From: a virus
IMG/VR virus record: IMGVR_UViG_3300025718_000001
Location: 1 to 64,000 of that record
Reading direction: 5' to 3' (one strand)
Length of the DNA stretch: 64,000 nucleotides
The notes under the pieces are model-generated. The model did not search any database. It saw nothing but the letters and a program-made list of their open reading frames with translations, and had not been told where the DNA came from. The position numbers were made by a program, and so were the translations under genes. Positions 13,526-50,912 of this stretch are shown piece after piece; position 1 is the stretch's first letter; every line of letters begins with the position of its first letter.

Positions 13526-13526
13526 T

Positions 13527-13568: not shown

Positions 13569-13572
13569 AACC

Positions 13573-14224: not shown

Positions 14225-14248
14225 TTTGTACCCTCCAAATTGTGTCAA

Positions 14249-14298: not shown

Positions 14299-14361
14299 AA
14301 CATCAATCAAGGAGTTGCTTGCGGAACACAAAGGGGTTCGGAGCGTAAAGGAGTTTTACGA

Positions 14362-14577: not shown

Positions 14578-14578
14578 T

Positions 14579-15034: not shown

Positions 15035-15036
15035 AT

Positions 15037-15079
15037 CCCACAAGGCCAGCCGGGGACCATAAGCCCGGCGAAGGAGGAA
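15037..15079 (+). promoter_or_regulatory. conserved GC hairpin abutting the SD (copy 2)
   Basis: CCACAAGGCCA-GCCGGG-gaccataag-CCCGGC-GAAGGAGG. Stem change is compensated relative to copy 1. Confidence 0.5.
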
Positions 15080-15092
15080 GGATGTTTTTAAA

Positions 15093-15287
15093 ATGAAATG
15101 TGTTATTGATGCTTTTGTAGAAGATTTAATTAGGGCTCATTCAATCAGAGAAAGTGCTTTTGCTTCTGATCATCTTAATGCCGATTTTGCATCTAAAATA
15201 GAATATTTAGTTAAGCATTATGGTGATTTAACTCTTTCTGATGTTCGTCCTTTGGTTGATGCTTTGGTAAAATTGCGCGGATTTTAA
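15093..15287 (+). CDS. hypothetical protein (64 aa)
   Basis: The ATG lies 15 nt after the SD. It overlaps the stop of a 4-codon mini-ORF (15082-15096, MFLK). Confidence 0.55.
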   Translation: MKCVIDAFVEDLIRAHSIRESAFASDHLNADFASKIEYLVKHYGDLTLSDVRPLVDALVKLRGF

Positions 15288-23241: not shown

Positions 23242-23478
23242 CTAATCCATAATCATTAATGCTGTTCCGAATTTTCTCGCTATTATGCAATCTACTATGT
23301 CTGCATCTTGTAAATTTTCCATTGTTATGATTGACAAAAGGTCCAATGCGATACTTCCTGCGGTCATACTTTCTGTTATGGCTTCCAGTACCGCGAATTC
23401 TCTATCGCTTATTAACCCAGCTAAATTCATCTCAAATGCCGTTGTTTGAAATTGCATAACTAGCTCAGATATTTGCAA
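23242..23478 (-). CDS. hypothetical protein (78 aa)
   Basis: ORF overlaps the dnaB stop. Confidence 0.55.
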   Translation of the reverse strand: MQISELVMQFQTTAFEMNLAGLISDREFAVLEAITESMTAGSIALDLLSIITMENLQDADIVDCIIARKFGTALMIMD

Positions 23479-24763: not shown

Positions 24764-25512
24764 TGAATTTCTCCCTCCCTCTTAGGGGATTCGTTAATCT
24801 TGTCCTCCACCTGATTAAGATAGTTTTCAAAATTAGTAGGGCTAAATAATGTATTTGGCCTAAGAAAGTTTGATAAAGGCTTACCCTCCTTATCTTTTTT
24901 GCCAATCCACTCTTTGCATTTAATATCAATAACTTTCTTGAAATCATCTAGTGTTCTGCCCTCGCCCCATCTACCGTTTATAAATTTAATAGTAGCTTCC
25001 GTTTTTGGAGAAAAATTCTTCCCTGTTCTAAGGTTTAAGTAAGTAATAATTTCGAAATACGGTATCACTTCTTTAATTTCATTTGGTGTAGTTTCGTTTG
25101 GTTTAATAGTTGAACTATCGTCCAACTCCTGTTGAACGTCCGTTGAACGTCCGTTTGCCCTTCTCCATGCTTGAGCTGATGCCTTTCCGGCCTTTGATGC
25201 CTGTAATCTTTTCCCATCCAAATGCTCCATTCTCTTAAGAAGGGAAAGGCTAAAAAAGTCATGTTCATCAACCTCAAATAATCCATAGTTATTAATGACT
25301 GTTTTCATTTTTTCAAAGGTTGTGTTGTACCTTCGAGAGATAGCGGGTATAAGGGTTAGCGGATACCTATACCCCGGCTGATCCCTAAGCATTTCTACCA
25401 AAACCCAGTAGATGCCATACCCTTCAAGCCCCAACTGTTCAATAAGTAAAACGCACTTCGGATCATCCTTCGCATTAGAATCATGAGAAAAGTAATACGC
25501 ATCGATTGCCAT
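24754..25512 (-). CDS. phage replisome organiser (DUF4373 N-domain plus DnaD-like conserved phage C-terminus)
   Basis: YYFSHDSNAKDDPK...GYGIYWVLVEML at the N-terminus. IITYLNLRTGKNF...FLRPNTLFSPTNFENYLNQ at the C-terminus. Confidence 0.8.
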   Translation of the reverse strand: MAIDAYYFSHDSNAKDDPKCVLLIEQLGLEGYGIYWVLVEMLRDQPGYRYPLTLIPAISRRYNTTFEKMKTVINNYGLFEVDEHDFFSLSLLKRMEHLDGKRLQASKAGKASAQAWRRANGRSTDVQQELDDSSTIKPNETTPNEIKEVIPYFEIITYLNLRTGKNFSPKTEATIKFINGRWGEGRTLDDFKKVIDIKCKEWIGKKDKEGKPLSNFLRPNTLFSPTNFENYLNQVEDKINESPKREGEIQWR

Positions 25513-31092: not shown

Positions 31093-31414
31093 GCCCCCGC
31101 CTCGCCATCAACTCAATAACCTTCACTATAAGCGCAGTATCAGAACTCATTTCCACAATAGCCCCCTTCTCAGGATCAAACCAAATATCCAGCTCGCCAA
31201 TCTCATACTTGCACCGCATTTCGGTCTGCCATTCTTCCTTGATCGTTTCAGCCTCCGCAACAAGCCTTTTTGCTAATGCGTCTGCATCATCAAGGACTTT
31301 GAGTGCTTCGTCTAGCTTTGCCATTCCCCTTTTGAATCGTTCTGCCTCATCATCTGTGACAAGTGCCAATACTTTTTGTTCAGACATTGGGATCATCTTT
31401 TCTTTATCCGTCAT
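31085..31414 (-). CDS. hypothetical coiled-coil protein (109 aa)
   Basis: ORF in an operon. Confidence 0.55.
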   Translation of the reverse strand: MTDKEKMIPMSEQKVLALVTDDEAERFKRGMAKLDEALKVLDDADALAKRLVAEAETIKEEWQTEMRCKYEIGELDIWFDPEKGAIVEMSSDTALIVKVIELMARRGRG

Positions 31415-32222
31415 AACATCCGCATGCTTGGTCTACTACATCAATAAACATCGAAGGTTGATATTTACCATCCCCTAAAGCAACTTCTCCAGGCAAAGCC
31501 TTCGATTGTTCAATCTCCCTGCATCTCGTGTACCTAACAAACTTCATCCAAGAGAAACTTCTCCCAAGTCCCGAAATTGTTGTAAGATGAGCATGTATTT
31601 CCATCTTTAATGCCCTTTTTAACAAGTCGGGATGGTTTGCTCTTAATTCTAAAATCTCTGCCTTTTTCATGCTTGGGCAAAAGAAGCAGGATGATTTACC
31701 TGGTTGAGGAAGGTTTTCATTGGCAATTATTTGCTCACATTCATTCCTTCCAATATCCCATTCAATTAACGGATACCAGTATTCATATTTTTTGTCGTCG
31801 TATGCTTTAGCTCTCCTTTCTTCGTTTGCATCGTATCCAATAGCTTTAGTTACTTTTTCGCCCTTTTTCCATGTTTCTAAGGCTAATGGGAAATGGTTGC
31901 AATATTTATCCTGTGGCGCAGCCTTGAATTTTTGGGAACAAGTTTTAAATCCATAAGCTAGTGATGGTAACATTCTTTTTTCGAGACAATTTCTTTCAAG
32001 CGTCATTGTTTCCCCATTTAAATCAACCTTACTTACGGTAGTTATTGGAGGCATGCCATGAGAAACTAGCCAAAGGGAAAACATAATGATGTACCAATAT
32101 GTCTCAGGTCGTTCCCCCCCCGTATCAGCAAACAGGATGAGGTCGGGAATAATCCTGCGTTTCCACATTTCAATAAGCATTGCTGTCGAGTTTGTTCCTG
32201 CTCCATATGCAACGACTAGCAT
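31404..32222 (-). CDS. PAPS-reductase/PP-loop (adenine nucleotide alpha-hydrolase) family protein
   Basis: N-terminus VVAYGAGTNSTAMLIEMWKRRIIPDLILFADTGGERPETY resembles a PP-loop plus PAPS-reductase core. Confidence 0.5.
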   Translation of the reverse strand: MLVVAYGAGTNSTAMLIEMWKRRIIPDLILFADTGGERPETYWYIIMFSLWLVSHGMPPITTVSKVDLNGETMTLERNCLEKRMLPSLAYGFKTCSQKFKAAPQDKYCNHFPLALETWKKGEKVTKAIGYDANEERRAKAYDDKKYEYWYPLIEWDIGRNECEQIIANENLPQPGKSSCFFCPSMKKAEILELRANHPDLLKRALKMEIHAHLTTISGLGRSFSWMKFVRYTRCREIEQSKALPGEVALGDGKYQPSMFIDVVDQACGCYDG

Positions 32223-32560
32223 TCTTCACTCGCCAACTTAAGCTTTATAACTTCATTAACCGTTGCGATAAACTCCGAATTCGAGAATGGTCTTGCCCTA
32301 CCCATAATTCTCAGCCATGTTTCGTCATCTACTCTGCTTGCCCTAATCGCAGTACGAATCCCTCTCTCGACGCTGGGACCCATGCAATCTTTGTGCATTT
32401 TCGCTACTCCGGGGTATAATTCTTTCATCATTGCGTGGATTGATTCGGGATTTGTTTGCAAGAATAAAAGTGCGCTTTTTAAAAACTCATAACCTTTGAT
32501 ATGGGCAGGGATTTGGAGTTCGCGTAAGATGTTGTAGGTTTCAATTTTGAATTTGTTCAT
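32216..32560 (-). CDS. Spo0A C-terminal (effector/DNA-binding) domain protein without a receiver domain
   Basis: LQIPAHIKGYEFLKSAL, LYPGVAKM, SVERGIRTAIR and PFSNSEFIATVNEVIKLKL parallel Spo0A VPAHIKGYLYLREAI...SRVERAIRHAIE...PTNSEFIAMVADKLRL. Confidence 0.8.
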   Translation of the reverse strand: MNKFKIETYNILRELQIPAHIKGYEFLKSALLFLQTNPESIHAMMKELYPGVAKMHKDCMGPSVERGIRTAIRASRVDDETWLRIMGRARPFSNSEFIATVNEVIKLKLASEEC

Positions 32561-32577
32561 TCGTGTTCTCCTTTCTA

Positions 32578-33207
32578 TTATTGATTGGCTTTGAAGAAGG
32601 CGTTTGCGAATCCCGCTGGCGTAATACTGCGCCTGACTTGACGCTTATCTAATCCACAGGCAGGGTTATAAACGAAACCATCCGGTAATTCAGGCAAGTC
32701 TTCAAGTAAACGAGCATCAAATTTGATCGGGTCGTAGGATACTTGGTTCATTGCCGGCGTTTGGAAGTTGCCCCAAATATGAGTTATCTTTTTATATGGA
32801 TCACCAAACTGATGCGGGCTAAATTCCAACGGAGGTTTTCCGAGGAAGTATTTCAGAAATCCCCGGGGATTCTCTAGCGCCCAAAACTTCAAGGTTGTGA
32901 CTTTTGAGTTTGGACTGATTAGTGCATATTGTTGTTGCCAAATTATCCCTAAGCATCTCTTGACCAGCTTCATAGACCCCTCTAAATCTCTTGGATTCCT
33001 TGCGTTTGTACGAGCGAGACTAAAATGTGTGCAGGTTGGTGCTGCGAGAATGCCATATACCCCCCCTGGAGGCTCGTAGGTGAATAGATCGTGTTCTGGC
33101 AAGGTGACAAGTCTAACGTCATATCCTGCGTCCTTATATGGCTTGGACCAGGACCCTGTCCCACCGCATAAATCCAAGATGATCTTGTCGGAATTGTCCA
33201 TTACCAT
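32578..33207 (-). CDS. short C5-cytosine-methyltransferase-like protein with no obvious target-recognition domain
   Basis: Motif I ILDLCGGTGSWS, motif IV AAPTCTHFS, motif VI ALENPRG, and QFGDPYKK. Only 209 aa. Confidence 0.55.
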   Translation of the reverse strand: MVMDNSDKIILDLCGGTGSWSKPYKDAGYDVRLVTLPEHDLFTYEPPGGVYGILAAPTCTHFSLARTNARNPRDLEGSMKLVKRCLGIIWQQQYALISPNSKVTTLKFWALENPRGFLKYFLGKPPLEFSPHQFGDPYKKITHIWGNFQTPAMNQVSYDPIKFDARLLEDLPELPDGFVYNPACGLDKRQVRRSITPAGFANAFFKANQ

Positions 33208-33606
33208 CTACCCTTCATTTCTCATGATATCTTCCAAACTCCACACGCTTGTGCTAGACTGATCTTGTGATATTTCCTCTAGGTCCCTCTGCAAAGGGGC
33301 CTTTTTCATAACTAACTTTATGAGCGTTTCTTCCTCATAATTGATATAAAACAGCTCACATTCCACCCCATCCATAGGGTCTGTGTAGTTTAGCGACTTG
33401 CCAGCGTGTTCGAGATTCGGGAATAATTCGTCAAGCTCATCGCTGATCGCTTGTTCGACTCTATTCCAATCAACATCAGGCATGGAATGTATTACGATTG
33501 CCGAGGTTGAGTCGTTCAGGAGTTCGATGGTCACTCTTTGGATTATGCTTGGGTATTTAGCGAGTTCTTTGATGGCTTGGAATTGGTCTGACGTTATTTC
33601 TTTCAT
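33208..33606 (-). CDS. hypothetical protein (132 aa)
   Basis: ATG at 33606 overlaps the upstream TGA (ATGA). Confidence 0.55.
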   Translation of the reverse strand: MKEITSDQFQAIKELAKYPSIIQRVTIELLNDSTSAIVIHSMPDVDWNRVEQAISDELDELFPNLEHAGKSLNYTDPMDGVECELFYINYEEETLIKLVMKKAPLQRDLEEISQDQSSTSVWSLEDIMRNEG

Positions 33607-33836
33607 TCTCCTACTCCCCAATTACAGCAATCGAATCTATCAAACCCACTCGGCTTCTCCGTCTCCGCATCCCTCACGGCTTGTCCCTTCATTATCAATT
33701 GCCAATCATGCCGATACTGCTCCTCACGCTGATCCTCATGCTCTTTCCTCCACGCCTCAACTTCTCTGCGGAACCAATTGACTTTGAGTAGTTGCTTGCC
33801 AATTGCCTTTGCCCACTTTTTCATAAGGTTTTTCAT
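33603..33836 (-). CDS. hypothetical protein (77 aa)
   Basis: ORF in an operon. Confidence 0.55.
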   Translation of the reverse strand: MKNLMKKWAKAIGKQLLKVNWFRREVEAWRKEHEDQREEQYRHDWQLIMKGQAVRDAETEKPSGFDRFDCCNWGVGE

Positions 33837-33840
33837 CGTT

Positions 33841-34725
33841 TTAACCCTTCCTCCTTCGGTATTCTGGCCACGGTGTTGTTTTGAATGTGGCTTTATGGAT
33901 TACCCATCTCGCAAAGTCAGCCTGATATGGATCTGTTTTATCAAAAGGCATTACGAACGGGTCTACACCCAAACTCTTTAGCATTTCGACCCTGTATAAA
34001 TCCTCATCCTCAGTTGTGTCGTATCCGATCAGAACGTAGAACATCAATTTGTAAGGCAACATATACTTTGTTAGAATTCGTATACCATCCAATACAACTT
34101 GCTCTAGATCCATTGAATCCCAAGCGAATCTTAACTTTCCGCTTTTCCATAACCTAACCTTAGAGAGACGCTTCGCCTTATCGTCATCTATCAAGCGAAT
34201 ATCTAATCCTTGATTAAAATCTGTCTTAATCTTATGTTTGATAACTTGATTGACAATCAGATTAAAATGTTCCGTATCTCCCGTTAAATTGTTATCCATC
34301 AGAGTTATATGCTCTTGGCCTTGCCAAAATTGGTGTATGTCTGCTACAGGGTGCAAACGGCCCTCCTTAATGGGCACGATACAGAAAGAGCAAGAACGGT
34401 TGCATCCTCGTGTACAAAACCCTCTCGACACCTGAGAGTTGTATAAAGAGTAGTCGGGATACATTGTTTCCACTTCGTCAGGTAACTTGATCGTTAGGTC
34501 GAATCCACTTCCACCTTGAATTATTTCGCAATCTGGAAAGTATCCGTAGTTATCAGAAGCTTTAAATATTTTAGATGAGTAGATACGGTCTGGTTTGTTC
34601 TCCTTAATATCAAACATGGGGTCAAATATCTTGACAGAATCCCCAAGCCCTTTGTGGTAAGCCGACAGCTTCATAAGTACTAAGTTCGGTATCTTGGAAT
34701 CAACATCGACCAAACCTACCTTCAT
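33841..34725 (-). CDS. radical SAM enzyme
   Basis: CNRSCSFC (CX3CX2C) follows a Rossmann-like N-terminus (MKVGLVDVDSKIPNLVLMKLSAYHK). Confidence 0.6.
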   Translation of the reverse strand: MKVGLVDVDSKIPNLVLMKLSAYHKGLGDSVKIFDPMFDIKENKPDRIYSSKIFKASDNYGYFPDCEIIQGGSGFDLTIKLPDEVETMYPDYSLYNSQVSRGFCTRGCNRSCSFCIVPIKEGRLHPVADIHQFWQGQEHITLMDNNLTGDTEHFNLIVNQVIKHKIKTDFNQGLDIRLIDDDKAKRLSKVRLWKSGKLRFAWDSMDLEQVVLDGIRILTKYMLPYKLMFYVLIGYDTTEDEDLYRVEMLKSLGVDPFVMPFDKTDPYQADFARWVIHKATFKTTPWPEYRRRKG

Positions 34726-37503: not shown

Positions 37504-37701
37504 CTAATCTTCTTTGAATAAATCGGCCATAGTGCATCCGAGAACCTTCGCGATCTTCTCAAGAATCCTAACAGTGGGCATTTTCTTAGCTCCTAGAATT
37601 TCCGATATGGTAGCCGAGGAAACCCCAGCTAACTTAGCTAACTCGAATTGCTTAAGCCCCCTTTGATCCATGTACTTCTTGACGTTCTTTGCGACAATCA
37701 A
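37504..37701 (-). CDS. Cro-like XRE-family HTH regulator
   Basis: LKQFELAKLAGVSSATISEI. TTG at 37701 follows AAGGAGGTG plus 6 nt (the track ORF extends to 37746). Confidence 0.75.
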   Translation of the reverse strand: MIVAKNVKKYMDQRGLKQFELAKLAGVSSATISEILGAKKMPTVRILEKIAKVLGCTMADLFKED

Positions 37702-37809
37702 ATTTGTCACCTCCTTGACCTTTGTTAGCACGGTAATAACCATCACCTTTCTTTTAGCTTACAGCAAACATTCGGGTAAAAAATATATGTTTGCCTGTTT
37801 ATATTTATG

Positions 37810-37953: not shown

Positions 37954-38334
37954 TTGATTTTTGGGGAGAAAGTCAAGTATGTCCGGGAATTACGAAATCT
38001 AACACAGGCCGACCTTTCTGCTAAGTGTTCCCTAAGTATTCCTTTTATATCAGAAATTGAAACAGGGAAAAAGAGGCCCTCCACTAGGGCACTAGAGAGG
38101 ATAGCGAAGGCGTTAAATACTAATACTTGGTTCTTCCAAGATGATGCCGCTATTACCTTTAAGGAGATAAATAAACTATCCGATTATGAACCACCGGAAG
38201 GTATAGTTGAATTCTTTTCCCAAAAGGAAAGTTTGCCTTACGCAATATTAGCCAGAGAGTTAAGCGATGAAGGAATAGACCCCGAATTCCTTCGCGATCT
38301 ACTTGACTCAATCAGAAAAATGAAAGCAAAGTAA
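37954..38334 (+). CDS. CI-like XRE-family repressor
   Basis: LTQADLSAKCSLSIPFISEIETGKKRPS plus a C-terminal domain. TTG start follows AAGGGGGTG. Divergent from cro. Confidence 0.75.
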   Translation: MIFGEKVKYVRELRNLTQADLSAKCSLSIPFISEIETGKKRPSTRALERIAKALNTNTWFFQDDAAITFKEINKLSDYEPPEGIVEFFSQKESLPYAILARELSDEGIDPEFLRDLLDSIRKMKAK

Positions 38335-38568: not shown

Positions 38569-38793
38569 ATGATAGTAGAAAAGGACCTAAAAGGGGTTTT
38601 TAAATGGATTGTAGTTGATGAAAATTCGGTTATTGTTGATCCTGTGTATATGGGGGAGTATCAGAATTCAATAAAAGGCAGTAGGGTACCATTATTCATG
38701 TGCCCTCACAAGATCATTATGTTAGTGGCCTGTATATCTGCCGCCATCTCATTACCCGTCCTCCATAGCCTATGCTCTTTGCATAAAAGCTGA
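38569..38793 (+). CDS. hypothetical protein (74 aa) with a hydrophobic C-terminus
   Basis: ORF with SD AAAGGAAG. Weak support. Confidence 0.35.
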   Translation: MIVEKDLKGVFKWIVVDENSVIVDPVYMGEYQNSIKGSRVPLFMCPHKIIMLVACISAAISLPVLHSLCSLHKS

Positions 38794-38998
38794 TAATTAA
38801 AAAGGAAAATACAATAACCCTGTCGAATTAAACTAAAAAAGGATATGGAAAAACCTCTTAGAATTCCCACCGGCAAGTGATATCCTAAGAGGTTCCAATA
38901 AGACAGGAAACATTCCTGTGTTTTATGCTGTTGATTAACATTATAAAGCACATTAGAACTTCTGTCCATTCCTTAATAGAATTGACGGGGGTTTTATT

Positions 38999-39388
38999 TT
39001 GTTCAGATTACCACGCCCACAGAAAAACTATACAGAAGTTCCTAACATTGTTTTTGATGAGCTAATACCCAACATATCCAATATGGCTGCGCTCAAATGT
39101 TACCTAATCTTAATTCGTAAGACATGGGGATGGGAAAAGATAGGTGACTATTTAGCTATGCCCCAATTAACCAAGCTCACGAAACTTTCAAGGCCCAGCG
39201 TAACAGCCGGGATGCGCTGGCTAGATAGCAGGGGTTATATTTGGATTGCAAAGGCAGGTGAACCTGGTCAAGAGAAGATTATGTATTTCCTTTGCACCGA
39301 GGAAACTGAACACCTTGAACGGTCCGTAAAAGAAGGGCTATTGAGTGCGGATACCCTCTATAAAATGATGATGAAAGAGCGAGAATAG
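38999..39388 (+). CDS. lambda-O-like replication initiator, N-terminal wHTH domain
   Basis: YTEVPNIVFDELI...LKCYLILIRKTWGWEKIGDYLAMPQLTKLTKLSRPSVTAGMRWLDSRGYI fits the Phage_rep_O pattern. Iterons follow. Confidence 0.7.
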   Translation: MFRLPRPQKNYTEVPNIVFDELIPNISNMAALKCYLILIRKTWGWEKIGDYLAMPQLTKLTKLSRPSVTAGMRWLDSRGYIWIAKAGEPGQEKIMYFLCTEETEHLERSVKEGLLSADTLYKMMMKERE

Positions 39389-39525
39389 TTATCCACATAC
39401 CCCGAAAGAATCTTTCCCCCTCCCCGAAAGAATTTTGCGGGGACCCCGAAAGAATCTTTCCCCACAAGAAATACTCTTTAAAACAGCTATCTTATTAATA
39501 ATACGCGCGAGGTAAGTTATCCACA
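39389..39525. other. candidate replication origin
   Basis: Perfect DnaA boxes TTATCCACA at 39389-97 and 39517-25 flank three iterons and an AT-rich stretch. Confidence 0.6.
39400..39459 (+). repeat. three direct iterons CCCCGAAAGAAT(C/T)TT at 22-bp phasing
   Basis: Copies start at 39400, 39422 and 39444. Confidence 0.75.
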
Positions 39526-39543
39526 GGAAAGGACGGTTTTATA

Positions 39544-40107
39544 GTGTATTTAACGCTTAAGCAATGTGCAGACCTAGCTAAAATTGGGGTAAGTAGCGCC
39601 CGCTTTTATAAAGATAAGCCAGAATTCAAACACTACTTCACTACGATCGGAGAAGGAAGGAACACGAAATATCAAGAAGGGTCTACGATAGAACTCCTCA
39701 CATTAATCAGTAAGTCTTACGCTGACAATTTAGACGCTGATCAAATCGTAGAAATACTAGAAAGTAGTTATGGAGTAGTAACTGATTTAGTGACCCAAGA
39801 AAAGAAAAATAATAGCACCACAGAACAACAAGAAGATTTAACGCACAGTATACGGGCTATTTTCAGTGAGGAATTAGGGAAGAGAGATCAACTTATCCTT
39901 GATTTACAAGAACAGCTTTCAGATAATCAACAAGAGCTTACCGACATAAAGCAATCCCTCGAATCACTCCACGAGAAGAGCGAGAACAGGGATAGGACCT
40001 CTTTACGGAGACATGAGGACATAACACTCATGATGAAAAATCTAATGGCAGAGAAGGAACGTATACAGCAACAACGAAAATGGTGGCACATATTTTCGGG
40101 GAAATAA
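39544..40107 (+). CDS. MerR-type HTH plus coiled-coil protein (DUF3967-like)
   Basis: LTLKQCADLAKIGVSSARFY, a long Q/E coiled coil, and a C-terminal KWWHIFSGK. Confidence 0.5.
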   Translation: MYLTLKQCADLAKIGVSSARFYKDKPEFKHYFTTIGEGRNTKYQEGSTIELLTLISKSYADNLDADQIVEILESSYGVVTDLVTQEKKNNSTTEQQEDLTHSIRAIFSEELGKRDQLILDLQEQLSDNQQELTDIKQSLESLHEKSENRDRTSLRRHEDITLMMKNLMAEKERIQQQRKWWHIFSGK

Positions 40108-40139
40108 ATCCATACTACTGTTGAGGAAAGATTAGAGAT

Positions 40140-40166
40140 ACCCGGCTGAAATATGCTGGGTTTTTG
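40140..40166 (+). terminator. intrinsic terminator
   Basis: ACCCGGC-tgaaatat-GCTGGGT followed by TTTTT. Confidence 0.55.
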
Positions 40167-40169
40167 CTA

Positions 40170-40480
40170 TGCCTAATTTTGGCAGGAATAATAGACGAAC
40201 GGTACGCCATACCTTTCAGTATCACCTAAACGTTGAATGAAACGGTCAACGGCTATCAATCTACACTAGGAGGTGAAAGCTTGTAACTAATCGGTAGTGA
40301 AAACGCTTTTGATGGCTCCTACCTTTTATCGCTAATAACTAGCGTATTGTTACATCAAGAGGGTGGTTGACATCACCCTGTTCTTCCCAGGATCATGCCT
40401 GAGAAGAAACGGCATGACGGTACTCTATTCCCATCTGCCTTAGATTCATAGCTCCAATTCTATCGTCATTTGATTGATAG
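40170..40480 (-). ncRNA. candidate TnpB omega RNA (reRNA); boundaries approximate
   Basis: Hairpins downstream of the tnpB stop: GGGTG..CACCC, CGCTA..TAGCG, CGTTGA..TCAACG and GGTA..TACC. Confidence 0.4.
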
Positions 40481-41514
40481 CCACATGATTTACAAGTGAA
40501 GCTATGTTTTTTCTTGTTGCGATTAGATCGCTCAGTATGACCGCACTTTGGGCATTTCTGACTTGTATATCTTGGATCAACTGCAATTGTCTGATTTCCT
40601 GCCAACATTGATTTATATTCAATCTTGCTTCTCATGTCAAGAAACGCCCAAGAAACGGAATAGTATCTGTCCTGACGTTTAACGCGTTCAGTAGCAGAAC
40701 GAATTCCTTTTAGATCCTCTAAGACTATAAGACTATTAGATCCCGCAAATTCAACGAGTGCCTTAGCAGTTTGATGATTAACATCTTGTTGCCAACGGTT
40801 TTCTCTATTACCAATCTTTCTTAATCGCCTGCGAGAGGATGGAGTTTTCTTTTGTTGTAGAGACTTCCTTATTCTCTTAAACTGAGCTTTTTTGTTCTTG
40901 ATATATCTACCACCAACGAAGAGGGTCTTGTTATTACTGTCAATGGCTGTGACAAGATAATTCATTCCAACATCAACACCTACAACATTTATGATGTCAT
41001 TATTGGGGCAGATTGCGAATTCCTTTTTAACAGATATATGGAGATAATATTTATCCTTCTTCTTAACTAGAGTACTTGCCCCATACTCCCAAGTTCCATC
41101 AAAATAGTCTTCCAATCCTTTGGCGACGTATGACATCTTAATTCTAGTGCCTATTGTCCCGATACTCAATGTACCGTCTTTGAGAAACGAATAGTCTCGA
41201 TTATAAGAATATTGGAGTTTTGGTTGTTTATAAACAGCCAAGGTGTTCTCTCCGTTCGATTTCATTGACGCATATGTCCCTGCTACCACTGAGCAGACGT
41301 TACAGGCCATCTGGGACTTCAATTGAAACTGTTCCCTAAGATCATAGTAGACTAACCCCTGCAACTTCTTAAATGCTGACAGTTGATTATTCTTAAATGC
41401 AATTTCACTAGCGAAATTCAAACCAGCTTTAACCTGTATTAATGTTTTATCTAACTGTCTTTTCTGCTCTTCATTTGGTAAAAGCTTAACCTTTGCAGTA
41501 ATAATAGCTTCCAT
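40393..41514 (-). CDS. tnpB: TnpB RNA-guided endonuclease (OrfB)
   Basis: RuvC-I VGVDVGMNY, RuvC-II VLEDLKG, zinc ribbon CPKCGH...CKSCGY and RuvC-III NDDRIGAMN. Confidence 0.9.
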   Translation of the reverse strand: MEAIITAKVKLLPNEEQKRQLDKTLIQVKAGLNFASEIAFKNNQLSAFKKLQGLVYYDLREQFQLKSQMACNVCSVVAGTYASMKSNGENTLAVYKQPKLQYSYNRDYSFLKDGTLSIGTIGTRIKMSYVAKGLEDYFDGTWEYGASTLVKKKDKYYLHISVKKEFAICPNNDIINVVGVDVGMNYLVTAIDSNNKTLFVGGRYIKNKKAQFKRIRKSLQQKKTPSSRRRLRKIGNRENRWQQDVNHQTAKALVEFAGSNSLIVLEDLKGIRSATERVKRQDRYYSVSWAFLDMRSKIEYKSMLAGNQTIAVDPRYTSQKCPKCGHTERSNRNKKKHSFTCKSCGYQSNDDRIGAMNLRQMGIEYRHAVSSQA

Positions 41515-41529
41515 GTTCTCTTCACCCCC

Positions 41530-41565
41530 CTTCAGTAACTACTATATTATACCATATTACTGAAG
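41530..41565. repeat. 9-bp inverted repeat in the tnpB/ftsK-like intergenic region
   Basis: CTTCAGTAA, 18 nt, TTACTGAAG. Encloses TGGTATAAT on the minus strand. Confidence 0.4.
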
Positions 41566-41603
41566 CGAATAGAAGTCCTAACGTTGAGTTGAAAGGAGAA
41601 AGA

Positions 41604-42959
41604 ATGAAAAAGCACAGCGACTTCTCTTCTGAAATTAAAGAGCAAATTATGAGAGCTATATACCGTGGACCAGATAACGAAATACCCTCTGCCATCTATG
41701 ATGCAATTTCTATCCTGTATGCTAGTTGCCCCCTTAAGCCATTCATTTTCAAGAAAACTCTTCTCTCCCCCAAGGAAAAACTAAAGCCTCAGCTACCCGA
41801 AAACCTCAATCCGCAAGAAATCCTCCACTGGATAATGCACAGACCAAAACTAAAGCAGACATGGTGCTTAGTGATTCACCTGCCGCCTGGAATAGACTTC
41901 ACTGAGTTCAAAAGTAGAGAACCCTACTTCTCCACAGCGATTGGCAACGGTTCATGCGAAATAGAGCGCAATGGAAAAGTTGTATTAATGACCATATCTA
42001 ATATATTACTCAATAAGTCATATCCTTTTGAGTTCGACCCATACCCATATCTAAAGAAAATGAGCTTGCCTATCCTCCTTGGCTATAGTGCAAGTGGTCC
42101 TATTATTGTAGATATGGCAGAGCTAGTGACTATTTTAACAGGAGGACTCAGGGGATCGGGCAAGTCAGTTTTATTCCACGGAGCTATATATAGTCTCCTA
42201 AGGCTTAACACCGACCTACTCAATCCTAAAGTAATTGTCTGTATCATCGACCCAAAGATTAAGGAATTCAAATACTTTGAGGAATATGGCGCAATATGGG
42301 TTCATGACATGGATGAAATACGGCAACTACTCGAAATGTTAGATGAAGAGAACGAACGCAGACAGGACTTAATCGGTGGCAAGGCTAACAACATCATTGA
42401 ATATCATGCGCTTGGAAAGAAGTTGCCTTTTGTTGTTGTGGTAGCAGATGAAGTAACTGACTTAGGCGAAGATAAGAATTGCAGGAAGTTAATGATTAAG
42501 GCAGTGCGCAAGTATCGTAGTCAAGGAATTTATGTATGGGCAGCTACGCAAAGGCCTTCCGCAAAAGCATGGGGAAGTTCAAACGAATTCAGCGAATTCA
42601 AGAGCCAGTTTGAATCAAGGGTATGCTTCAGGACCGCCGACCCTATTAACAGTCAAATGATATTGGATTCCAACCGTGCTAGTTCCCTTCCGAAGATCCC
42701 CGGTCGAGCCATCTATAAATTCAGCGAAGAGACTGAAATACAAGTTCCTTATTTTCCATCTAAGGCAAAGCATCCTAAACTATTTCACGAACTTATGGAC
42801 CAATTACCCAAAGTTGCACTTCCCTATCACAACATCGAAGGTGAGGTATATGATTATGAACCCAATTACCCACTCCAAAGGACGCAAAAGAGATCAGCAG
42901 GTCCTAGCGCATCTCGAAGCTTGCGGGGTCTTATCTCAGGAGCAAATACATTTGCTTGA
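41604..42959 (+). CDS. FtsK/SpoIIIE-family DNA translocase ATPase
   Basis: Walker A GGLRGSGKS, Walker B FVVVVADEV, and ATQRPS. ATG at 41604 follows AAAGGAGAA. Confidence 0.8.
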   Translation: MKKHSDFSSEIKEQIMRAIYRGPDNEIPSAIYDAISILYASCPLKPFIFKKTLLSPKEKLKPQLPENLNPQEILHWIMHRPKLKQTWCLVIHLPPGIDFTEFKSREPYFSTAIGNGSCEIERNGKVVLMTISNILLNKSYPFEFDPYPYLKKMSLPILLGYSASGPIIVDMAELVTILTGGLRGSGKSVLFHGAIYSLLRLNTDLLNPKVIVCIIDPKIKEFKYFEEYGAIWVHDMDEIRQLLEMLDEENERRQDLIGGKANNIIEYHALGKKLPFVVVVADEVTDLGEDKNCRKLMIKAVRKYRSQGIYVWAATQRPSAKAWGSSNEFSEFKSQFESRVCFRTADPINSQMILDSNRASSLPKIPGRAIYKFSEETEIQVPYFPSKAKHPKLFHELMDQLPKVALPYHNIEGEVYDYEPNYPLQRTQKRSAGPSASRSLRGLISGANTFA

Positions 42960-43554
42960 ATTCTGGAATGTCAGTAGGGAAATGTCCCATCGTTGCACTC
43001 AAAGGCTGGAAAGGGACCACCTTATTCGCAGGGTTAAAATGTCCTGGAGCGACATGCCCGATTGGTTTTATCTCTACGATGAGAAAAGACCGGATCAAAT
43101 TCAGCACAGGTTGGGCAAGTCTTGGATTTATACCGCATGGCATATGAAAGCATTAGATTCTTACGGAGTGCAATCTCTGACATACTTCAAATCAGAGAAC
43201 CGAAAGTTTTATGATAAGGACAAATCCCATCCTATCCCCGATTGCTATGGTGTAATGAACCATAAAGTGTATGGTAATATATTTAGCTTCGGAGAGTTCC
43301 AAGTCAATTCATCTTCTAACACATGGAATAAGGATTATCGCTCATTATTTGATACATTCGCATTGGATCAGTATCTTTCCTTGATGGTGGTAACAACGGA
43401 TTCGTTCGATACAATCAAGGCTAAGATGTACAGCGAGCTTTTGGGAAAGAAGAATATCAGGCTTGAATTCTATACCTTAGATAAATTAAGGGATCTATGT
43501 TGGAGAATTGTGCTTATAAAGAGAGAGGAACATCGACAAAAGGAGTTGACATAA
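42856..43554 (+). CDS. replication-relaxation (Replic_Relax)-like protein
   Basis: N-terminal wHTH RDQQVLAHLEACGVLSQEQI...RCTQRLERDHLIRR, later PIPDCYG. Overlaps the ftsK-like 3' end by about 100 nt. Confidence 0.5.
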   Translation: MNPITHSKGRKRDQQVLAHLEACGVLSQEQIHLLEFWNVSREMSHRCTQRLERDHLIRRVKMSWSDMPDWFYLYDEKRPDQIQHRLGKSWIYTAWHMKALDSYGVQSLTYFKSENRKFYDKDKSHPIPDCYGVMNHKVYGNIFSFGEFQVNSSSNTWNKDYRSLFDTFALDQYLSLMVVTTDSFDTIKAKMYSELLGKKNIRLEFYTLDKLRDLCWRIVLIKREEHRQKELT

Positions 43555-43776
43555 ATGAGTCCTGGAGAAATCGCAATCAAAAATATGTTTTTGGTTATGC
43601 AAATGGGCGCAGCGATATTTGTTTTCAATTGGGGATGCGACATATTCGGATTCGGCAGAGCTAAGATGGTTATTAGTATTTTAGGCATGGCCGCATTAGC
43701 CGCAATGATATTCAGTTCGTTGTCTGGATTTATGGGAGCTGCGGAAAGTATCAGTAAAGGAGTTTGGCCTAAATGA
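43555..43776 (+). CDS. small two-TM membrane protein (73 aa)
   Basis: Two hydrophobic helices. ATG follows the upstream TAA. Confidence 0.6.
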   Translation: MSPGEIAIKNMFLVMQMGAAIFVFNWGCDIFGFGRAKMVISILGMAALAAMIFSSLSGFMGAAESISKGVWPK

Positions 43777-44486
43777 TCAGCGATATTATTCGCCTATCCG
43801 CTTTATATGTCTTAGCTAGGGTCCTTGCTGAGATAGCTTTCCCTTCTGGTAAAGTAGTTATTAAGTATCTCTTCTATACAGGCGTTATATTGACCGTAGT
43901 TGGCGTTGTAGGTCCACAGATTAACCGTATGACCTCAGACTTACATGAGGTTGCAGTTACCTATACTAAGGCCAGGGAGGGAGTACAGAGCATCAAGAGC
44001 GGAGTAGACGCTGTCACTAACTTGCCAGAAATGATGGAGTCAATACCTTATGTAGGAGTCGCGGCAAAGTATCCACCAGGGATAACGCTAATGGAAAAGC
44101 TAAGACCATCTACTATCCGTTTTAGCGTGCCGGTAGTAGGACCCATCTCTCAGCCATTCAAAGGCGCAGATCATCACGGCATAGACATTGCCGTGAATGT
44201 TGGTACACCAGTTAAAGCATCTAGGGTAGGAGTAATTTGCGTTAATCACGACAGCATTTATGGGGATTATGTAATTGTAGACCATGGCGAAGGATGGCAG
44301 ACGCTTTATGCTCACCTGTCTAAGGTTAGCGCAAAAGCAGGGGATAAGGTTTTAGGGGGAAGCATAATCGGGCTTAGCGGAGGAATTAAAGGAGCAGAGG
44401 GTTCGGGCAATTCAGAAGGACCGCATTTGCATTTTGAGATTAGGGTTGGTGGAATCGTGAGGGACCCGCAACCATATCTTAGATAA
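43773..44486 (+). CDS. membrane-anchored M23 (LytM) peptidoglycan peptidase
   Basis: N-terminal TM segments, then HHGIDIA, VDHGEGWQTLYAHL and GPHLHFEIR. Confidence 0.85.
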   Translation: MISDIIRLSALYVLARVLAEIAFPSGKVVIKYLFYTGVILTVVGVVGPQINRMTSDLHEVAVTYTKAREGVQSIKSGVDAVTNLPEMMESIPYVGVAAKYPPGITLMEKLRPSTIRFSVPVVGPISQPFKGADHHGIDIAVNVGTPVKASRVGVICVNHDSIYGDYVIVDHGEGWQTLYAHLSKVSAKAGDKVLGGSIIGLSGGIKGAEGSGNSEGPHLHFEIRVGGIVRDPQPYLR

Positions 44487-44499
44487 AGGAGTGTTTATT

Positions 44500-44700
44500 A
44501 TGGCAAAGTCTAAACGACAGGTCATCGGATGTGAACAACTTATTGCAGCAATAATGCTATTCGCTCAAAAATCTTCACAATATGAGTATCAGGGAGCCAT
44601 ACTCCAAGATGAATGGGAAGAAGTAACTGTTGAGTCTTTAATCGAATGTGTAAGAAAGGAATTGGGAGGGAAGGAACTCGTGATGGAGGCGGTAAAATGA
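44500..44700 (+). CDS. hypothetical protein (66 aa)
   Basis: ATG follows AAAGGAG. Confidence 0.55.
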   Translation: MAKSKRQVIGCEQLIAAIMLFAQKSSQYEYQGAILQDEWEEVTVESLIECVRKELGGKELVMEAVK

Positions 44701-44819
44701 AAGTATGGATAGTAGTTGATATGTATTGGGGAAACATACTATCTGTTTATTCCAACGAGAAGGATGCTTGGGATGATAAAACAGAAGGAACGGAAATATT
44801 TGAAAGGATCGTGAAGTAA
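44697..44819 (+). CDS. 40-aa hypothetical protein
   Basis: ATGA overlap with the upstream stop. Confidence 0.45.
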   Translation: MKVWIVVDMYWGNILSVYSNEKDAWDDKTEGTEIFERIVK

Positions 44820-44820
44820 A

Positions 44821-45486
44821 ATGTTTATAGTCCTTCGCAAGTCCTCTATTAAAAGAACACTAGCTATCGCCATGATGCTTATCATAATAGGACTCTCTTT
44901 GAAATCACCAGCGTTCACTCAGGCTAACGAATCCCCCTTATACTACTTATACCCCTATCCAAGCAATAACCCCTCTCAAACGTCTTTATTCTGGTCAGAG
45001 GCAGATCCATCAATGGGAGCATTTAGTCTGGATATGTGGCATAAGATAGTGCCCGGCAGGCAGATCGTAGTGGGATTGCCAAAGGGCTATGATATTGTTG
45101 AAACAAGGGGAGGGATATTATCCGACTACATTAAAGCGAAAATAGGAAGCAATTTAAAGAATGGGAGTAAGCCTGTAGATGTCGGTAAACCTGTTCCGAT
45201 CCCGAAGGACAGTATAACTTATGAGCGAAAGATAACTTCCGATGGGATTCAAGAGAAAATCAGAGTAGAAGTTGGAGAGCATTTTAGGGATAATGATAAT
45301 TTTGAGAGATACCTTGACAGCGTAAAACGAAATCTAACTAATAAAAATGAATTGCCAGACAGACCGCCTGTTCCACTAGAGATACCAGAACCTACGCCAG
45401 AAGCCGCGAAAGCCGTAGGGAATACACTTGTACTTAGCGGAGTAGTAATTATGATGTTTAAGCTTTTACCTTTGTTGGCATTATAG
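44821..45486 (+). CDS. secreted or membrane-anchored protein (221 aa)
   Basis: Signal-like N-terminus, a proline-rich segment and a C-terminal hydrophobic anchor. Confidence 0.6.
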   Translation: MFIVLRKSSIKRTLAIAMMLIIIGLSLKSPAFTQANESPLYYLYPYPSNNPSQTSLFWSEADPSMGAFSLDMWHKIVPGRQIVVGLPKGYDIVETRGGILSDYIKAKIGSNLKNGSKPVDVGKPVPIPKDSITYERKITSDGIQEKIRVEVGEHFRDNDNFERYLDSVKRNLTNKNELPDRPPVPLEIPEPTPEAAKAVGNTLVLSGVVIMMFKLLPLLAL

Positions 45487-45490
45487 GCAT

Positions 45491-45530
45491 AAAAATACCG
45501 TCCGGCTCGATTGAGTTTAGACGGTATTTT
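45491..45530. terminator. bidirectional terminator between convergent operons
   Basis: AAAATACCGTC...GACGGTATTTT, an 11-bp stem with A/T runs on both sides. Confidence 0.7.
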
Positions 45531-45538
45531 TGGTTTAT

Positions 45539-48736: not shown

Positions 48737-49546
48737 TTATTTCAATCCTGCTTCATAATATAGATTCTCCAATATACCCCTCATCGCAAAGTGATTAATA
48801 TTATGGTCTGTCTCAAGATGATTTCGCAGAAAATGTTGGTCAATCATAGTTTCCATGTTTCCCTCATCTATAGAGAATTCACTCATAAAGCCGCTAATAA
48901 CTTCCGATACTCTTTCTATTTGCTTTTTCTTTAAAGCAGAATGTTCATATCCCTTGTATTCAAGATAAGCATTGAAGTAATAGGCAATTGTAGAAGCAGA
49001 CCTTCTCACATACTCTTTTACCTCTGACGTACGCGCATCTACAGATCGCGTACCATTATAATTATTGTATTTTATGTCGGTAGTTTGTGGAGTAGTGTAT
49101 GTTAAAGAATCTTCCGAAACGCAGTCCTCTTTATTTGTAATAGAAGTTTCCTTACTTTGAAAGCGAAGAAACTGATCAATAAAGGCTTTTTGATTAATCT
49201 TATAGTGGATAGTTGGATTTCCGTTAGCTTTCTTGAGCTTGGTTTCGAGTATTCCCATAGACTCTAGATTCTTCCGAATCTTCCTTAACGAATATTCGGA
49301 AATGAAAACCTCATCTTGCCATTCCCTAATTGTTTTGTAGATGAATCCGTCTTTCCTACTCCCCTTGTCTGTCCAGTAAATAAGTTGAGCAAGAAATACT
49401 CCTGACTCTAGATCACCAGTGAAGCGAATTATTTCCCTTGGTATGGCGAGTAGATTCTTTTCGCCCGATAATGATTGAATCATATTGAATATTTGTTGTT
49501 GGAATGAATCATTATTTTGATTGTTCAATCCATTCGATAACTGCAT
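48737..49546 (-). CDS. wHTH replication-initiator/DnaD-N-like protein
   Basis: GVFLAQLIYWTDKGSRKDGFIYKTIREWQDEVFISEYSLRKIRKNLESMGILE...NPTIHYKIN. Confidence 0.45.
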   Translation of the reverse strand: MQLSNGLNNQNNDSFQQQIFNMIQSLSGEKNLLAIPREIIRFTGDLESGVFLAQLIYWTDKGSRKDGFIYKTIREWQDEVFISEYSLRKIRKNLESMGILETKLKKANGNPTIHYKINQKAFIDQFLRFQSKETSITNKEDCVSEDSLTYTTPQTTDIKYNNYNGTRSVDARTSEVKEYVRRSASTIAYYFNAYLEYKGYEHSALKKKQIERVSEVISGFMSEFSIDEGNMETMIDQHFLRNHLETDHNINHFAMRGILENLYYEAGLK

Positions 49547-50243: not shown

Positions 50244-50912
50244 TTATTTTTGTTGCAATAATGCAAGTGTTAATTTTTTGCAAGCAAAGCCATCCGCGAA
50301 AGTTTTAGCCATGAACGCTGTTGATAAGCTTTCTTGAATACATACGACTACGTAGCAATCGGGATCGGGGTCTACTGTTTTTACGTCTGGCATTTTAGGC
50401 ACCTCCTGAATTACTGATTTATTACCTAATACCGCTTTCTCAAACTCATCGTAGGACCACATACCCCTTAGTGTGGGAACCTTAGAATAAGTGCACCCTG
50501 GGCAGTCTGTATACGTCACCTGACCGTGTGGATATACATTGTCTAGGGTTAACCCATACTGAGCCATTAGACGCTTTACAAGGGCAACTAGAGCGTTAAA
50601 TTGAGCTTGTGGCATGGGATACTTTGTGAAGTCCCCAGCTACACCAATTCCGATGGAGTTTTGATTCCACCATTGATCCCCCTTTTGAGAATAAGGTTTT
50701 TTATCAGAAAGTGTATGCGCTCCCTGGTAATTAAGTGGTCTACCGTCTCTGATTGTTCCGTCTGCTTCTACCCCAAAATCATATTCAGGGTAATCATAGT
50801 TGGCAGGATTCCAACGTTTGAGAATGGATACTTCAGGAGGTTTACCGTCCCCCATGTGGTGAATGACTATATCTTGGATTGATCTGTTAAATGGAGTTGA
50901 CATATTTTTCAC
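50244..50912 (-). CDS. N-acetylmuramoyl-L-alanine amidase endolysin (Amidase_2/PGRP type)
   Basis: IVIHHMGDG, NSIGIGVAGDF and YPHGQVTYTDCPG. Confidence 0.8.
   Translation of the reverse strand: MKNMSTPFNRSIQDIVIHHMGDGKPPEVSILKRWNPANYDYPEYDFGVEADGTIRDGRPLNYQGAHTLSDKKPYSQKGDQWWNQNSIGIGVAGDFTKYPMPQAQFNALVALVKRLMAQYGLTLDNVYPHGQVTYTDCPGCTYSKVPTLRGMWSYDEFEKAVLGNKSVIQEVPKMPDVKTVDPDPDCYVVVCIQESLSTAFMAKTFADGFACKKLTLALLQQK

Follow-up and report, generated by a model that had tools for sequence, protein, structure and literature searches.

Prophages that persist as plasmids, such as P1 with its oriR/RepA replicon and the plasmid prophages of Bacillus, combine the gene set of a tailed phage and a repressor switch with an iteron–DnaA-box replicon located apart from the lytic genes, and have no integrase. 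At the level of DNA processing, CloDF13-type MOB_C1 plasmids encode a relaxase together with their own coupling protein (PMC7434980). The relaxase and coupling-protein genes of MOB_C systems are typically adjacent, and the prototype relaxase TraX possesses an N-terminal winged helix-turn-helix (wHTH) and a restriction-endonuclease-like active site (PMC12857230). MOB_C relaxases correspond to the Pfam family Replic_Relax (PF13814) (PMC5357655), which has been placed in the PD-(D/E)XK superfamily (PMC3424549). Furthermore, pairs of an FtsK/SpoIIIE protein and a 'replication-relaxation' protein have been described in gamma-like phages, 268TH007 and RBClin15, and the roles suggested for them are DNA translocation at infection, plasmid replication or segregation, induction, and sporulation control (PMC4113786, PMC9476937, PMC11526630, PMC9658697). 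Here we analyze a 6.5-kb region (positions 38,999 to 45,530) of a tailed temperate phage, IMG/VR record IMGVR_UViG_3300025718_000001, and compare it with these systems. The first 64,000 nt of the record constitute the window, to which all coordinates of this phage refer.

Our analysis leans towards a region composed of three independent units: a plasmid-mode replicon that occupies the slot of the integrase, an insertion sequence (IS) of the TnpB-only type, and a DNA-processing and translocation cassette conserved in the lineage (Table 1). A first-pass annotation made from the sequence alone had described the same stretch as a plus-strand array forming one plasmid- or ICE-type (integrative and conjugative element) module; what it observed is largely right, what it concluded is half right.

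The strongest in silico argument for a phage-plasmid comes from the relatives of this phage, which were retrieved via the Replic_Relax-like protein and the 221-aa protein of the cassette and are designated below by locus number. The interval between the cI-like repressor gene and the cassette is occupied by a tyrosine integrase in L010, L012 and L025, and by a large serine recombinase in L013, L026 and L029. In the studied phage and in L022, the same interval holds an O-like initiator (Rep) gene, an origin-like region and orf187. Another Rep with its own origin, again followed by orf187, is found in L024/L027; the slot of L024 (positions 6481-7083) contains an unannotated 138-aa Rep and its own iterons between two perfect DnaA boxes. 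L031 possesses an HTH_36 Rep (173 aa, positions 667-1188) with orf187, and L023 (positions 2076-3831) an HTH_36 Rep with ParA (AAA_31, 2.5e-56) and a 152-aa partner. Hence, the Rep–origin unit sits where relatives have an integrase, and the replicon can be regarded as a positional, and presumably functional, stand-in for that gene.

The first gene of this unit encodes the 129-aa O-like wHTH protein that the first-pass annotation had already recognized as an initiator. It matches the PHROG family 'replication initiation O-like' (3e-12) and, over residues 10-81 only, annotated phage O proteins in a tblastn search (4e-9); the Pfam Phage_rep_O score of 25.9 bits is slightly below the cut-off of 28.7 bits. 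As in lambda O and ori-lambda, a homologous N-terminal wHTH (35-42% identity to annotated O proteins) is combined with direct repeats beside an A+T-rich stretch. In contrast to lambda, only the DNA-binding half of the protein is present: the C-terminal half, which recruits the helicase and is part of a full-length O protein, is missing, and the origin lies downstream of the gene, not inside it. Most of the 42 matching protein clusters of the O-like family are likewise about 130 aa long, and PF04492 is found in nearly all of them. The conserved length argues against a truncated gene and for an initiator that is small by nature.

Just downstream of the gene follows the origin-like region, which had also been noticed previously. 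It contains three direct repeats with 22-bp spacing (ACCCCGAAAGAATCTTTCCCC; Tandem Repeats Finder score 81) and an A+T-rich spacer (assessed by eye only), and two perfect DnaA boxes (TTATCCACA) flank the iterons. Four perfect DnaA boxes are observed in the 64-kb window, compared with 0.6 expected by chance. The flanking position of the boxes suggests that host DnaA, and not a P-like helicase loader, is required. A wHTH initiator encoded at the origin, at least three phased iterons, and DnaA boxes next to an A+T-rich stretch together correspond to the predicted architecture of an iteron-type theta replicon. The tnpB locus was considered as an alternative location of the origin-like region and was rejected, the iterons and DnaA boxes being situated at 39389-39525 (Table 1).

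The architecture is conserved while its components are exchanged. In L022, the Rep is 80% identical, both perfect boxes are retained, the iterons are near-identical, and orf187 comes next, with a hairpin and T-run 3' of it equivalent to the terminator that closes the replicon unit in the studied phage. In L024 (a 66,526-bp genome), the 138-aa Rep is unrelated and the three iterons between the two perfect boxes are different, and an orf187 homolog follows. L019 and L017 are unrelated elements whose O-like homologs (62-69% identity) are followed by DnaA boxes and iterons of their own; these genes adjoin ParA, an actin-like ALP protein and a YefM/YoeB pair. Two perfect DnaA boxes each occur after the Rep gene in L022, L024 and L019, and one in L017. 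Such covariation of iterons and initiator, with constant DnaA boxes, is what would be predicted for a functional iteron origin.

The role of orf187 is less direct. Its 187-aa product has no match of its own in Pfam, PHROG or NCBIfam; the L024 homolog (41% identity) matches MerR_1 at 25.5 bits, over the cut-off. Of the earlier description as a MerR/DUF3967-like protein, the MerR part is therefore upheld through this homolog, and DUF3967 found no support. The gene is found together with three different Rep genes; no copy was detected in relatives in which an integrase or serine recombinase is seen. Because orf187 accompanies Rep units only and is replaced by the ParA pair in L023, it probably supports replicon stability or copy control.

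The complete genome measures 67,080 bp, as obtained by joining the window to locus L005, so that only 3,080 bp lie outside the window. It assembles as a circle. The same proteins are found by exact-protein look-up on contigs of 67,079, 67,165 and 67,221 bp from different samples (the last being a k=141 assembly); the source metagenomes are JGI 3300002986 and 3300002989 and ENA ERZ27294299. None of the contigs with identical proteins is longer than one genome unit. The end of the ENA contig falls within the 67,165-bp contig of the Joint Genome Institute, which shows that the assemblies are circular permutations of each other. No match to Phage_integrase, Resolvase or Recombinase was obtained among the window ORFs (open reading frames) of at least 170 aa or among the ORFs of the 3,080-bp gap, which codes for structural ORFs on the same strand. 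Hence, the lack of an integrase, claimed previously for 64 kb, holds for the entire genome. The phage combines a set of virion, packaging and lysis genes and a cI/cro pair with a replicon on the repressor strand, and DnaB, the Lin1244_N/Phg_2220_C protein and the DnaD-like protein are encoded elsewhere. In these respects it resembles P1 and the Bacillus plasmid prophages. It differs from them in its 129-aa single-domain O-like initiator and in its uncultured Desulfosporosinus-like host, and it is known from sequence alone.

Several observations weigh against maintenance as a plasmid. The small size of the Rep is one. Another is that no ParA, ParM, TubZ or multimer/dimer-resolution protein was found among the scanned genome ORFs; among the relatives, L023 has a ParA in the slot. 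Furthermore, the P22-type portal and the GP3-type small terminase indicate headful packaging, for which circular contigs are expected anyway. Circularity is thus no proof of an episome: circularly permuted virion DNA would assemble in the same way as a plasmid prophage. In this situation the O-like/iteron unit could also be an additional origin for lytic replication or an array of regulatory binding sites in a phage that, having no integrase, is effectively virulent or pseudolysogenic. O-like proteins and iterons are classic in lytic phages, and a truncated Rep, the missing partition system and assemblies possibly derived from virions or replicating DNA would fit. We nevertheless consider this unlikely: the unit is located on the repressor strand in the integrase slot and away from the early lytic genes, the genome already contains DnaB and two other initiator-like genes, and homologous Rep–origin units adjoin ParA, ALP and toxin–antitoxin genes, with Rep and ParA together in the slot of a sister phage. 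The phage-plasmid reading, in agreement with the earlier proposal, is well supported in silico by the Rep–iteron–DnaA unit in the integrase slot and by the conserved architecture of the origin, and maintenance as a plasmid is plausible; the missing partition ATPase weakens the case somewhat.

According to this model, the binding sites of the 129-aa O-like protein would be the three iterons (22 bp) that follow its gene, those of host DnaA the two flanking boxes, and the A+T-rich spacer would open. Since the Rep has no counterpart of the C-terminal half of lambda O, helicase loading would pass to DnaA and host replication proteins. The prophage would then persist as a low-copy plasmid, and DnaB, the DnaD-like protein and RecT on the other strand would serve lytic replication, by analogy with P1. 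The parts assigned here to DnaA and orf187 are ones that we infer.

The replicon and the cassette are separated by the second unit, a minus-strand IS200/IS605-type element of the TnpB-only kind, which interrupts the array and was not mentioned in the first-pass annotation. In L022, the site is empty: the distance from the orf187 homolog to the FtsK gene is 128 nt, compared with 1,497 nt in the studied phage, and homology between the window and L022 stops at about 40252 and restarts at 41580. The IS was evidently inserted into the 128-nt spacer between replicon and cassette. The 373-aa tnpB gene, whose product has the RuvC-like and zinc-ribbon domains of TnpB, shows DNA similarity to plasmid tnpB genes, and in DNA-level searches of an 8-kb region against phage and plasmid collections it alone gave a match. 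No TnpA was seen in the element. A structured RNA region lies 3' of tnpB (fold z-score -2.7); no Rfam family was found between 37 and 46 kb, including this region.

The third unit, the cassette, is composed of five conserved genes, coding for a motor, a Replic_Relax-like protein, a protein with two transmembrane (TM) segments, an M23 peptidase and a bitopic protein. In the relatives it is located at the same site, adjoining convergent lysis-side genes. The motor, Replic_Relax-like, M23 and 221-aa genes are syntenic in all of them, and the two-TM protein is detected in most (37-63% identity). A copy of the cassette is also present in a 204,685-bp contig (SPQQ01000010.1) of Desulfosporosinus fructosivorans. 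Since it is found in this contig and in integrase-bearing relatives, the cassette is not tied to plasmid life, and the assumption that an FtsK cassette goes along with a plasmid lifestyle fails. It is an independent, lineage-wide module.

The motor is a 451-aa protein of the hexameric type with an ATG start, 55-79% identical in the relatives. The Pfam FtsK_SpoIIIE domain is matched at 1.3e-10 (41.5 bits, cut-off 24), and the motifs GLRGSGKS (Walker A), VVVADE (Walker B) and TQRP are present, which bears out the earlier identification of an FtsK/SpoIIIE ATPase with intact Walker motifs. The best match among solved structures is TcpA of the Clostridium perfringens plasmid pCW3 (1.3e-17, compared with 1.2e-13 for FtsK; entries 6O1W-Z were verified as TcpA by a search with the pCW3 gene product), and blastp aligns the two proteins with 27% identity over 308 aa (8e-23). 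Judged by the E-values of the structure search, the motor seems nearer to TcpA than to chromosomal FtsK. It does not belong to the TraB family (NCBIfam plasmid_TraB, 23.4 bits, cut-off 800). A type VII secretion interpretation was dropped, as matches to EssC-type proteins rest on the shared ATPase domain alone.

More challenging is the classification of the second gene. In direct scans with a long mechanical ORF and a 200-aa form of the protein, neither Pfam (even at E≤1) nor NCBIfam or PHROG gave a match, and pairwise BLASTP gave no significant alignment with the BtCS33 and pDW444 proteins. A family profile, however, drew 39 proteins from 1.84 billion representatives, and 25 of the 30 that were scanned are PF13814 Replic_Relax. 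A profile–profile comparison with hhalign yields a probability of 99.95% (E 1.4e-37), the second set having been retrieved with the first. The syntenic ortholog of Desulfosporosinus fructosivorans matches PF13814 directly (5.3e-15, 56.4 bits, over the cut-off). The earlier Replic_Relax-like label is thus recovered through the family profile and the ortholog, and the start of the gene is moved to 42856, from which the N-terminal 32 residues are conserved across relatives. With this start, the first 104 nt of the gene (42856-42959) are shared, in another frame, with the 3' end of the FtsK gene. An out-of-frame overlap of about 100 nt, with both frames kept, is found in every relative, and one of about 190 nt in Desulfosporosinus. 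The true start is often missed by gene callers. The AlphaFold2 model (mean predicted local distance difference test, pLDDT, 72.8) has a confident alpha/beta C-terminal domain and a low-confidence N-terminal region, for which the family alignment suggests an HTH-type fold. H84, E114, D129 and E147 are invariant in the family. We regard the 232-aa protein as a probable member of a divergent branch of the Replic_Relax/MOB_C superfamily.

The remaining genes code for envelope proteins, and here the gene calls of the first-pass annotation are borne out with one qualification. The 73-aa protein has two hydrophobic segments. The M23 peptidase, conserved in all relatives, has two N-terminal TM segments, and its active-site motifs are whole (HHGID for HxxxD, HLH for HxH), so that it is predicted to be active. 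The two tiny overlapping ORFs that follow do exist; they have no family match and were not detected in the relatives, where the interval is variable or absent. The last gene, described before as coding for a secreted or anchored protein, encodes a 221-aa product with an N-terminal signal or anchor, a proline-rich stalk and a C-terminal TM segment. It has no family match and its AlphaFold2 model is poor (pLDDT 58.9, predicted template modelling score 0.30); 46 homologous clusters were found, one of them from Desulfosporosinus fructosivorans. A bidirectional terminator, as recorded earlier, separates the cassette from the convergent minus-strand genes.

In its gene content, the cassette resembles a MOB module, i.e. 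a relaxase with its own coupling protein, to which a wall hydrolase and two membrane proteins have been added, and not a type IV secretion system (T4SS). The most likely interpretation of the sequences is a MOB-like DNA-processing and translocation module. The likeness to MOB_C modules (CloDF13 MobC with its coupling protein, pAD1 TraX) consists of a Replic_Relax-superfamily PD-(D/E)XK protein beside an FtsK-superfamily ATPase. The differences are the divergent nuclease, the phage-borne location, the lack of an identified origin of transfer (oriT), and envelope proteins that follow instead of a T4SS. With the Tcp locus of pCW3 (TcpG/TcpI hydrolases, TcpD/TcpE), the cassette shares a TcpA-related motor, a membrane-linked hydrolase and small TM proteins in the same operon. 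In contrast to pCW3, no counterpart of TcpF (VirB4-like), TcpH (VirB6-like) or TcpC was detected, the nuclease is MOB_C-like and not TcpM, and the motor has no N-terminal TM domain. When the full pCW3 gene set was compared with the cassette, TcpA was the sole match.

The same gene order, and the same site between lysis and lysogeny modules, are found for the FtsK/SpoIIIE and 'replication-relaxation' pairs of Bacillus: BtCS33 ORF21-23 (in a phage that also has integrases), those of gamma-like phages and 268TH007, and that of the B. cereus plasmid pDW444-67560, which is typed MOBC. The FtsK identity to these is 26-29%, and the Bacillus cassettes examined do not have the two-TM, M23 and bitopic genes that follow here. 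Because temperate phages and plasmids of Bacillus have such pairs in their annotations already (PMC4113786, PMC9476937), the statement that none of these genes are standard tailed-phage functions was too strong. What is new is the extension by three envelope genes, strictly conserved in the lineage.

Could the 6.5 kb nevertheless be one plasmid/ICE-derived module that gives both a plasmid state and autonomous capsid-independent conjugation? The clustering of a TcpA-like motor, a MOB_C-like nuclease and a membrane-anchored wall hydrolase, and the absence of an integrase, would agree with it, and minimal FtsK-centred transfer systems are known in Gram-positive bacteria (PMC13492992). However, replicon and cassette are separable, with cassette but no replicon in six relatives (L010, L012, L013, L025, L026, L029) and a replicon but no cassette in L017 and L019, and in the studied phage a terminator and the IS lie between them. 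Neither a VirB4 ATPase nor a VirB6-like protein was found, and the plasmid_TraB score is far below its cut-off. We therefore consider a single module improbable. Of the characteristic components of a Gram-positive conjugative T4SS, the membrane-anchored peptidoglycan hydrolase is present. As the minimal set of genes for a known transfer system the cassette does not qualify: the likeness to a DNA-transfer module, through the TcpA-like motor and its MOB_C-superfamily neighbor, is real but incomplete.

Under the three-unit interpretation, phage DNA, once recognized and cut or relaxed by the nuclease, would pass to the motor encoded next to it, and the three envelope proteins would act locally to remodel wall and membrane. 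Since neither a VirB4 ATPase nor a channel protein turned up, transfer would depend on the help of a conjugative element or on some other route. Capsid-independent transfer is put forward here as a hypothesis, and a number of results count against it. No VirB4 ATPase, VirB6-like protein or polytopic channel protein was found among the cassette proteins and the larger genome ORFs, nor could an oriT be identified. A hydrophobic segment, and hence a TM anchor, is absent from the motor; FtsK-type transfer ATPases of this kind do exist, e.g. TraD of pELF2 (PMC13492992). The Replic_Relax-like protein, besides its failure to match Pfam directly, has E-x-Q as its third motif where E-x-D prevails in the PF13814-rich set, and a Foldseek search with its model returned weak, sub-threshold matches to PD-(D/E)XK-type nuclease folds (best E 0.04). 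The IS parts a conserved promoter-like site from the FtsK start, so that expression of the cassette may be altered or poor in this phage. Finally, for none of the FtsK and Replic_Relax pairs of Bacillus phages has DNA transfer been demonstrated, and the literature on these phages proposes translocation at infection, plasmid replication or segregation, and sporulation control (PMC4113786, PMC9658697).

The last of these proposals leads to a different function, in which a SpoIIIE-like motor moves phage DNA across the division or sporulation septum into the forespore, with the Replic_Relax protein as a DNA-recognition or processing partner. The host is relevant here. Among species-representative genomes only two contigs of metagenome-assembled genomes, both the size of one genome unit, were matched, and the clue to the host came instead from a homolog of the 221-aa protein. 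The sole isolate match is Desulfosporosinus fructosivorans, in which the cassette lies between prophage-type lysis genes and genes with cellular Pfam domains (Arginase, YceG). The phage furthermore encodes a 114-aa protein with the Spo0A C-terminal domain, with homologs at 51-57% identity in L010, L012 and L013, by which it may manipulate the sporulation of its host. Taken together, the Desulfosporosinus copy and the Spo0A_C protein make a spore-forming Clostridia host likely, which keeps delivery to the forespore viable as a rival. Matches of the M23 peptidase to SpoIIQ models (4e-15, among many other M23 models) point in the same direction, as do the published proposals that phage FtsK/SpoIIIE proteins take part in DNA translocation and sporulation regulation (PMC4113786) or in plasmid replication and segregation (PMC9658697). 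On the other hand, integrated prophages need no such carriage and yet retain the cassette, the motor is nearer to TcpA than to FtsK in the solved-structure search and, unlike SpoIIIE, has no TM anchor, and no link of the cassette to sporulation timing was seen. The active site of the cassette peptidase is intact, unlike that of Bacillus SpoIIQ. Segregation or spore carriage is consequently rather unlikely in our view.

It is very improbable that the cassette serves prophage defence or exclusion, as a membrane-associated ATPase–nuclease pair that attacks or expels incoming DNA. The lysogeny-side location, an HTH pair of its own in several relatives, the pairing of an FtsK/HerA-type ATPase with a PD-(D/E)XK nuclease, and PADLOC matches of the FtsK domain (mad8 5e-16, SspH 5e-15) are in line with such a function. 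These matches, however, span only the generic ATPase domain, and the other cassette proteins match no defence model; moreover, the nuclease family is that of the MOB_C relaxases, and a wall hydrolase would be unusual in defence.

Table 1. Features of the studied region and of the surrounding phage genome (window coordinates).
Feature	Position	Strand	Basis
Replicon unit	38999-40170		
O-like wHTH protein, 129 aa, proposed plasmid-mode initiator	38999..39388	+	PHROG, Pfam, tblastn
Origin-like region	39389..39525	.	Repeat and DnaA-box search
First DnaA box	39389-39397		
Three iterons, followed by A+T-rich spacer	39399-39463		
Second DnaA box	39517-39525		
orf187, 187-aa MerR-like protein, candidate replicon accessory	39544..40107	+	Homolog match
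Intrinsic terminator closing replicon unit	40140..40170	+	Hairpin
Conserved promoter-like site	40164-40192		
TnpB-only IS200/IS605-type IS, ~1.33 kb	~40253..41579	-	Profiles and empty site
tnpB, 373 aa	40393-41514	-	Cas12f1-like_TNB 3e-20, OrfB_IS605 2.2e-9, PHROG transposase 1.2e-45
Cassette, five conserved genes	41604-45486		
TcpA/FtsK-like DNA translocase ATPase, 451 aa	41604..42959	+	Pfam, structure search
Divergent Replic_Relax (MOB_C-type) protein, 232 aa	42856..43554	+	Profile search, syntenic ortholog
73-aa protein, two TM segments	43555..43776	+	Hydrophobicity
M23 peptidoglycan endopeptidase, 237 aa, two N-terminal TM segments	43773..44486	+	Peptidase_M23 3.5e-25
Two overlapping small ORFs, 69 and 57 aa, doubtful significance	44491..44819	+	ORF call
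221-aa bitopic envelope protein, last conserved cassette gene	44821..45486	+	Hydrophobic segments
Bidirectional intrinsic terminator	45490..45535	.	AAAAATACCGTC...GACGGTATTTTT read directly
cro-like HTH_3 regulator, called gene 65 aa, divergent from cI-like	37504..37746	-	Pfam HTH_3/HTH_31
cI-like HTH_3 repressor, 126 aa, first plus-strand lysogeny-side gene	37954..38334	+	Pfam HTH_3/HTH_31
74-aa protein, one TM segment, next after cI	38569..38793	+	Hydrophobicity
Terminator-like hairpins after 74-aa gene	38852-38925		
Mu-gpT-like capsid protein	1502-2407		Profile scan
P22-type portal	4922-6958		Profile scan
Large terminase	7182-8705		Profile scan
GP3-type small terminase	10473-11084		Profile scan
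Plus-strand island	11966-15287	+	
394-aa protein	12341-13525	+	PHROG 'primase' 8.8e-57; DUF3560 only E=0.034
NikA/MobC-like ribbon-helix-helix protein, 51 aa	13819-13974	+	2.8e-16
DnaB	23465-24763		Profile scan
Lin1244_N/Phg_2220_C protein, adjoins DnaB	24754-25512	-	Profile scan
Cluster with possible DNA-modification genes	31404-34725	-	
Spo0A C-terminal DNA-binding-domain protein, 114 aa	32216-32560	-	Domain match
DnaD/O-like protein, second O-like, downstream of lysis genes	48737-49546	-	Profile scan
Amidase_2 endolysin	50244-50912		Profile scan
LPD38-domain large polyvalent protein, 1591 aa	53233-58008	-	Profile scan

Outside the three units, ORF and profile scans reveal the expected gene set of a tailed temperate phage, with most genes on the minus strand, including a tail protein with an SLT domain and, among the replication and recombination genes, RecT. 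Three initiator-like genes occur in the one genome: those of the DnaD/O-like protein, the Lin1244_N/Phg_2220_C protein and the O-like Rep. Homologs of the cI-like repressor are present at the same position in L022, L023, L024 and L031 (45-63% identity). The 74-aa protein after cI is kept at 58-61% identity in L022, L023 and L031 and may be an exclusion-type protein.

An island of plus-strand genes, which also includes a 151-aa ribbon-helix-helix protein, is bounded by the small terminase and a late-regulator-like gene. Its MobC-like and DUF3560-like genes had been cited as part of a plasmid theme. The NikA/MobC assignment is sound; the supposed DUF3560 protein, 394 aa long, is a much better match to a PHROG 'primase' (Table 1). 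A minus-strand cluster encodes proteins similar to phosphoadenosine phosphosulfate (PAPS) reductase (phrog_424), DNA methyltransferase (phrog_757) and radical-SAM enzymes (phrog_9298, 7.8e-79), and it may constitute a DNA-modification system. Large polyvalent proteins of the LPD38 type, such as the 1591-aa protein of this phage, occur in phages as well as in conjugative elements.

If confirmed, the exchange of one small cassette at a fixed slot in this lineage would provide a clean natural system for the transition between integrated and episomal lysogeny, the alternatives being a tyrosine integrase, a serine recombinase, three or more kinds of Rep units (of which two have origins with DnaA boxes and iterons), and Rep with ParA. 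It would also supply compact replicons for genetically intractable anaerobic Bacillota. For the FtsK and 'replication-relaxation' pairs of many Firmicute phages and plasmids, the cassette would represent a first functional lead. It is doubtful, but of consequence, that the cassette is a self-regulated device for the capsid-free passage of the phage genome from cell to cell or into the forespore, in which case these phages, whether integrated or plasmid-borne, would be viruses and mobilisable or conjugative elements at once. Phages would then also spread, or enter spores, by a motor-driven route, and estimates of prophage mobility and host range would change.

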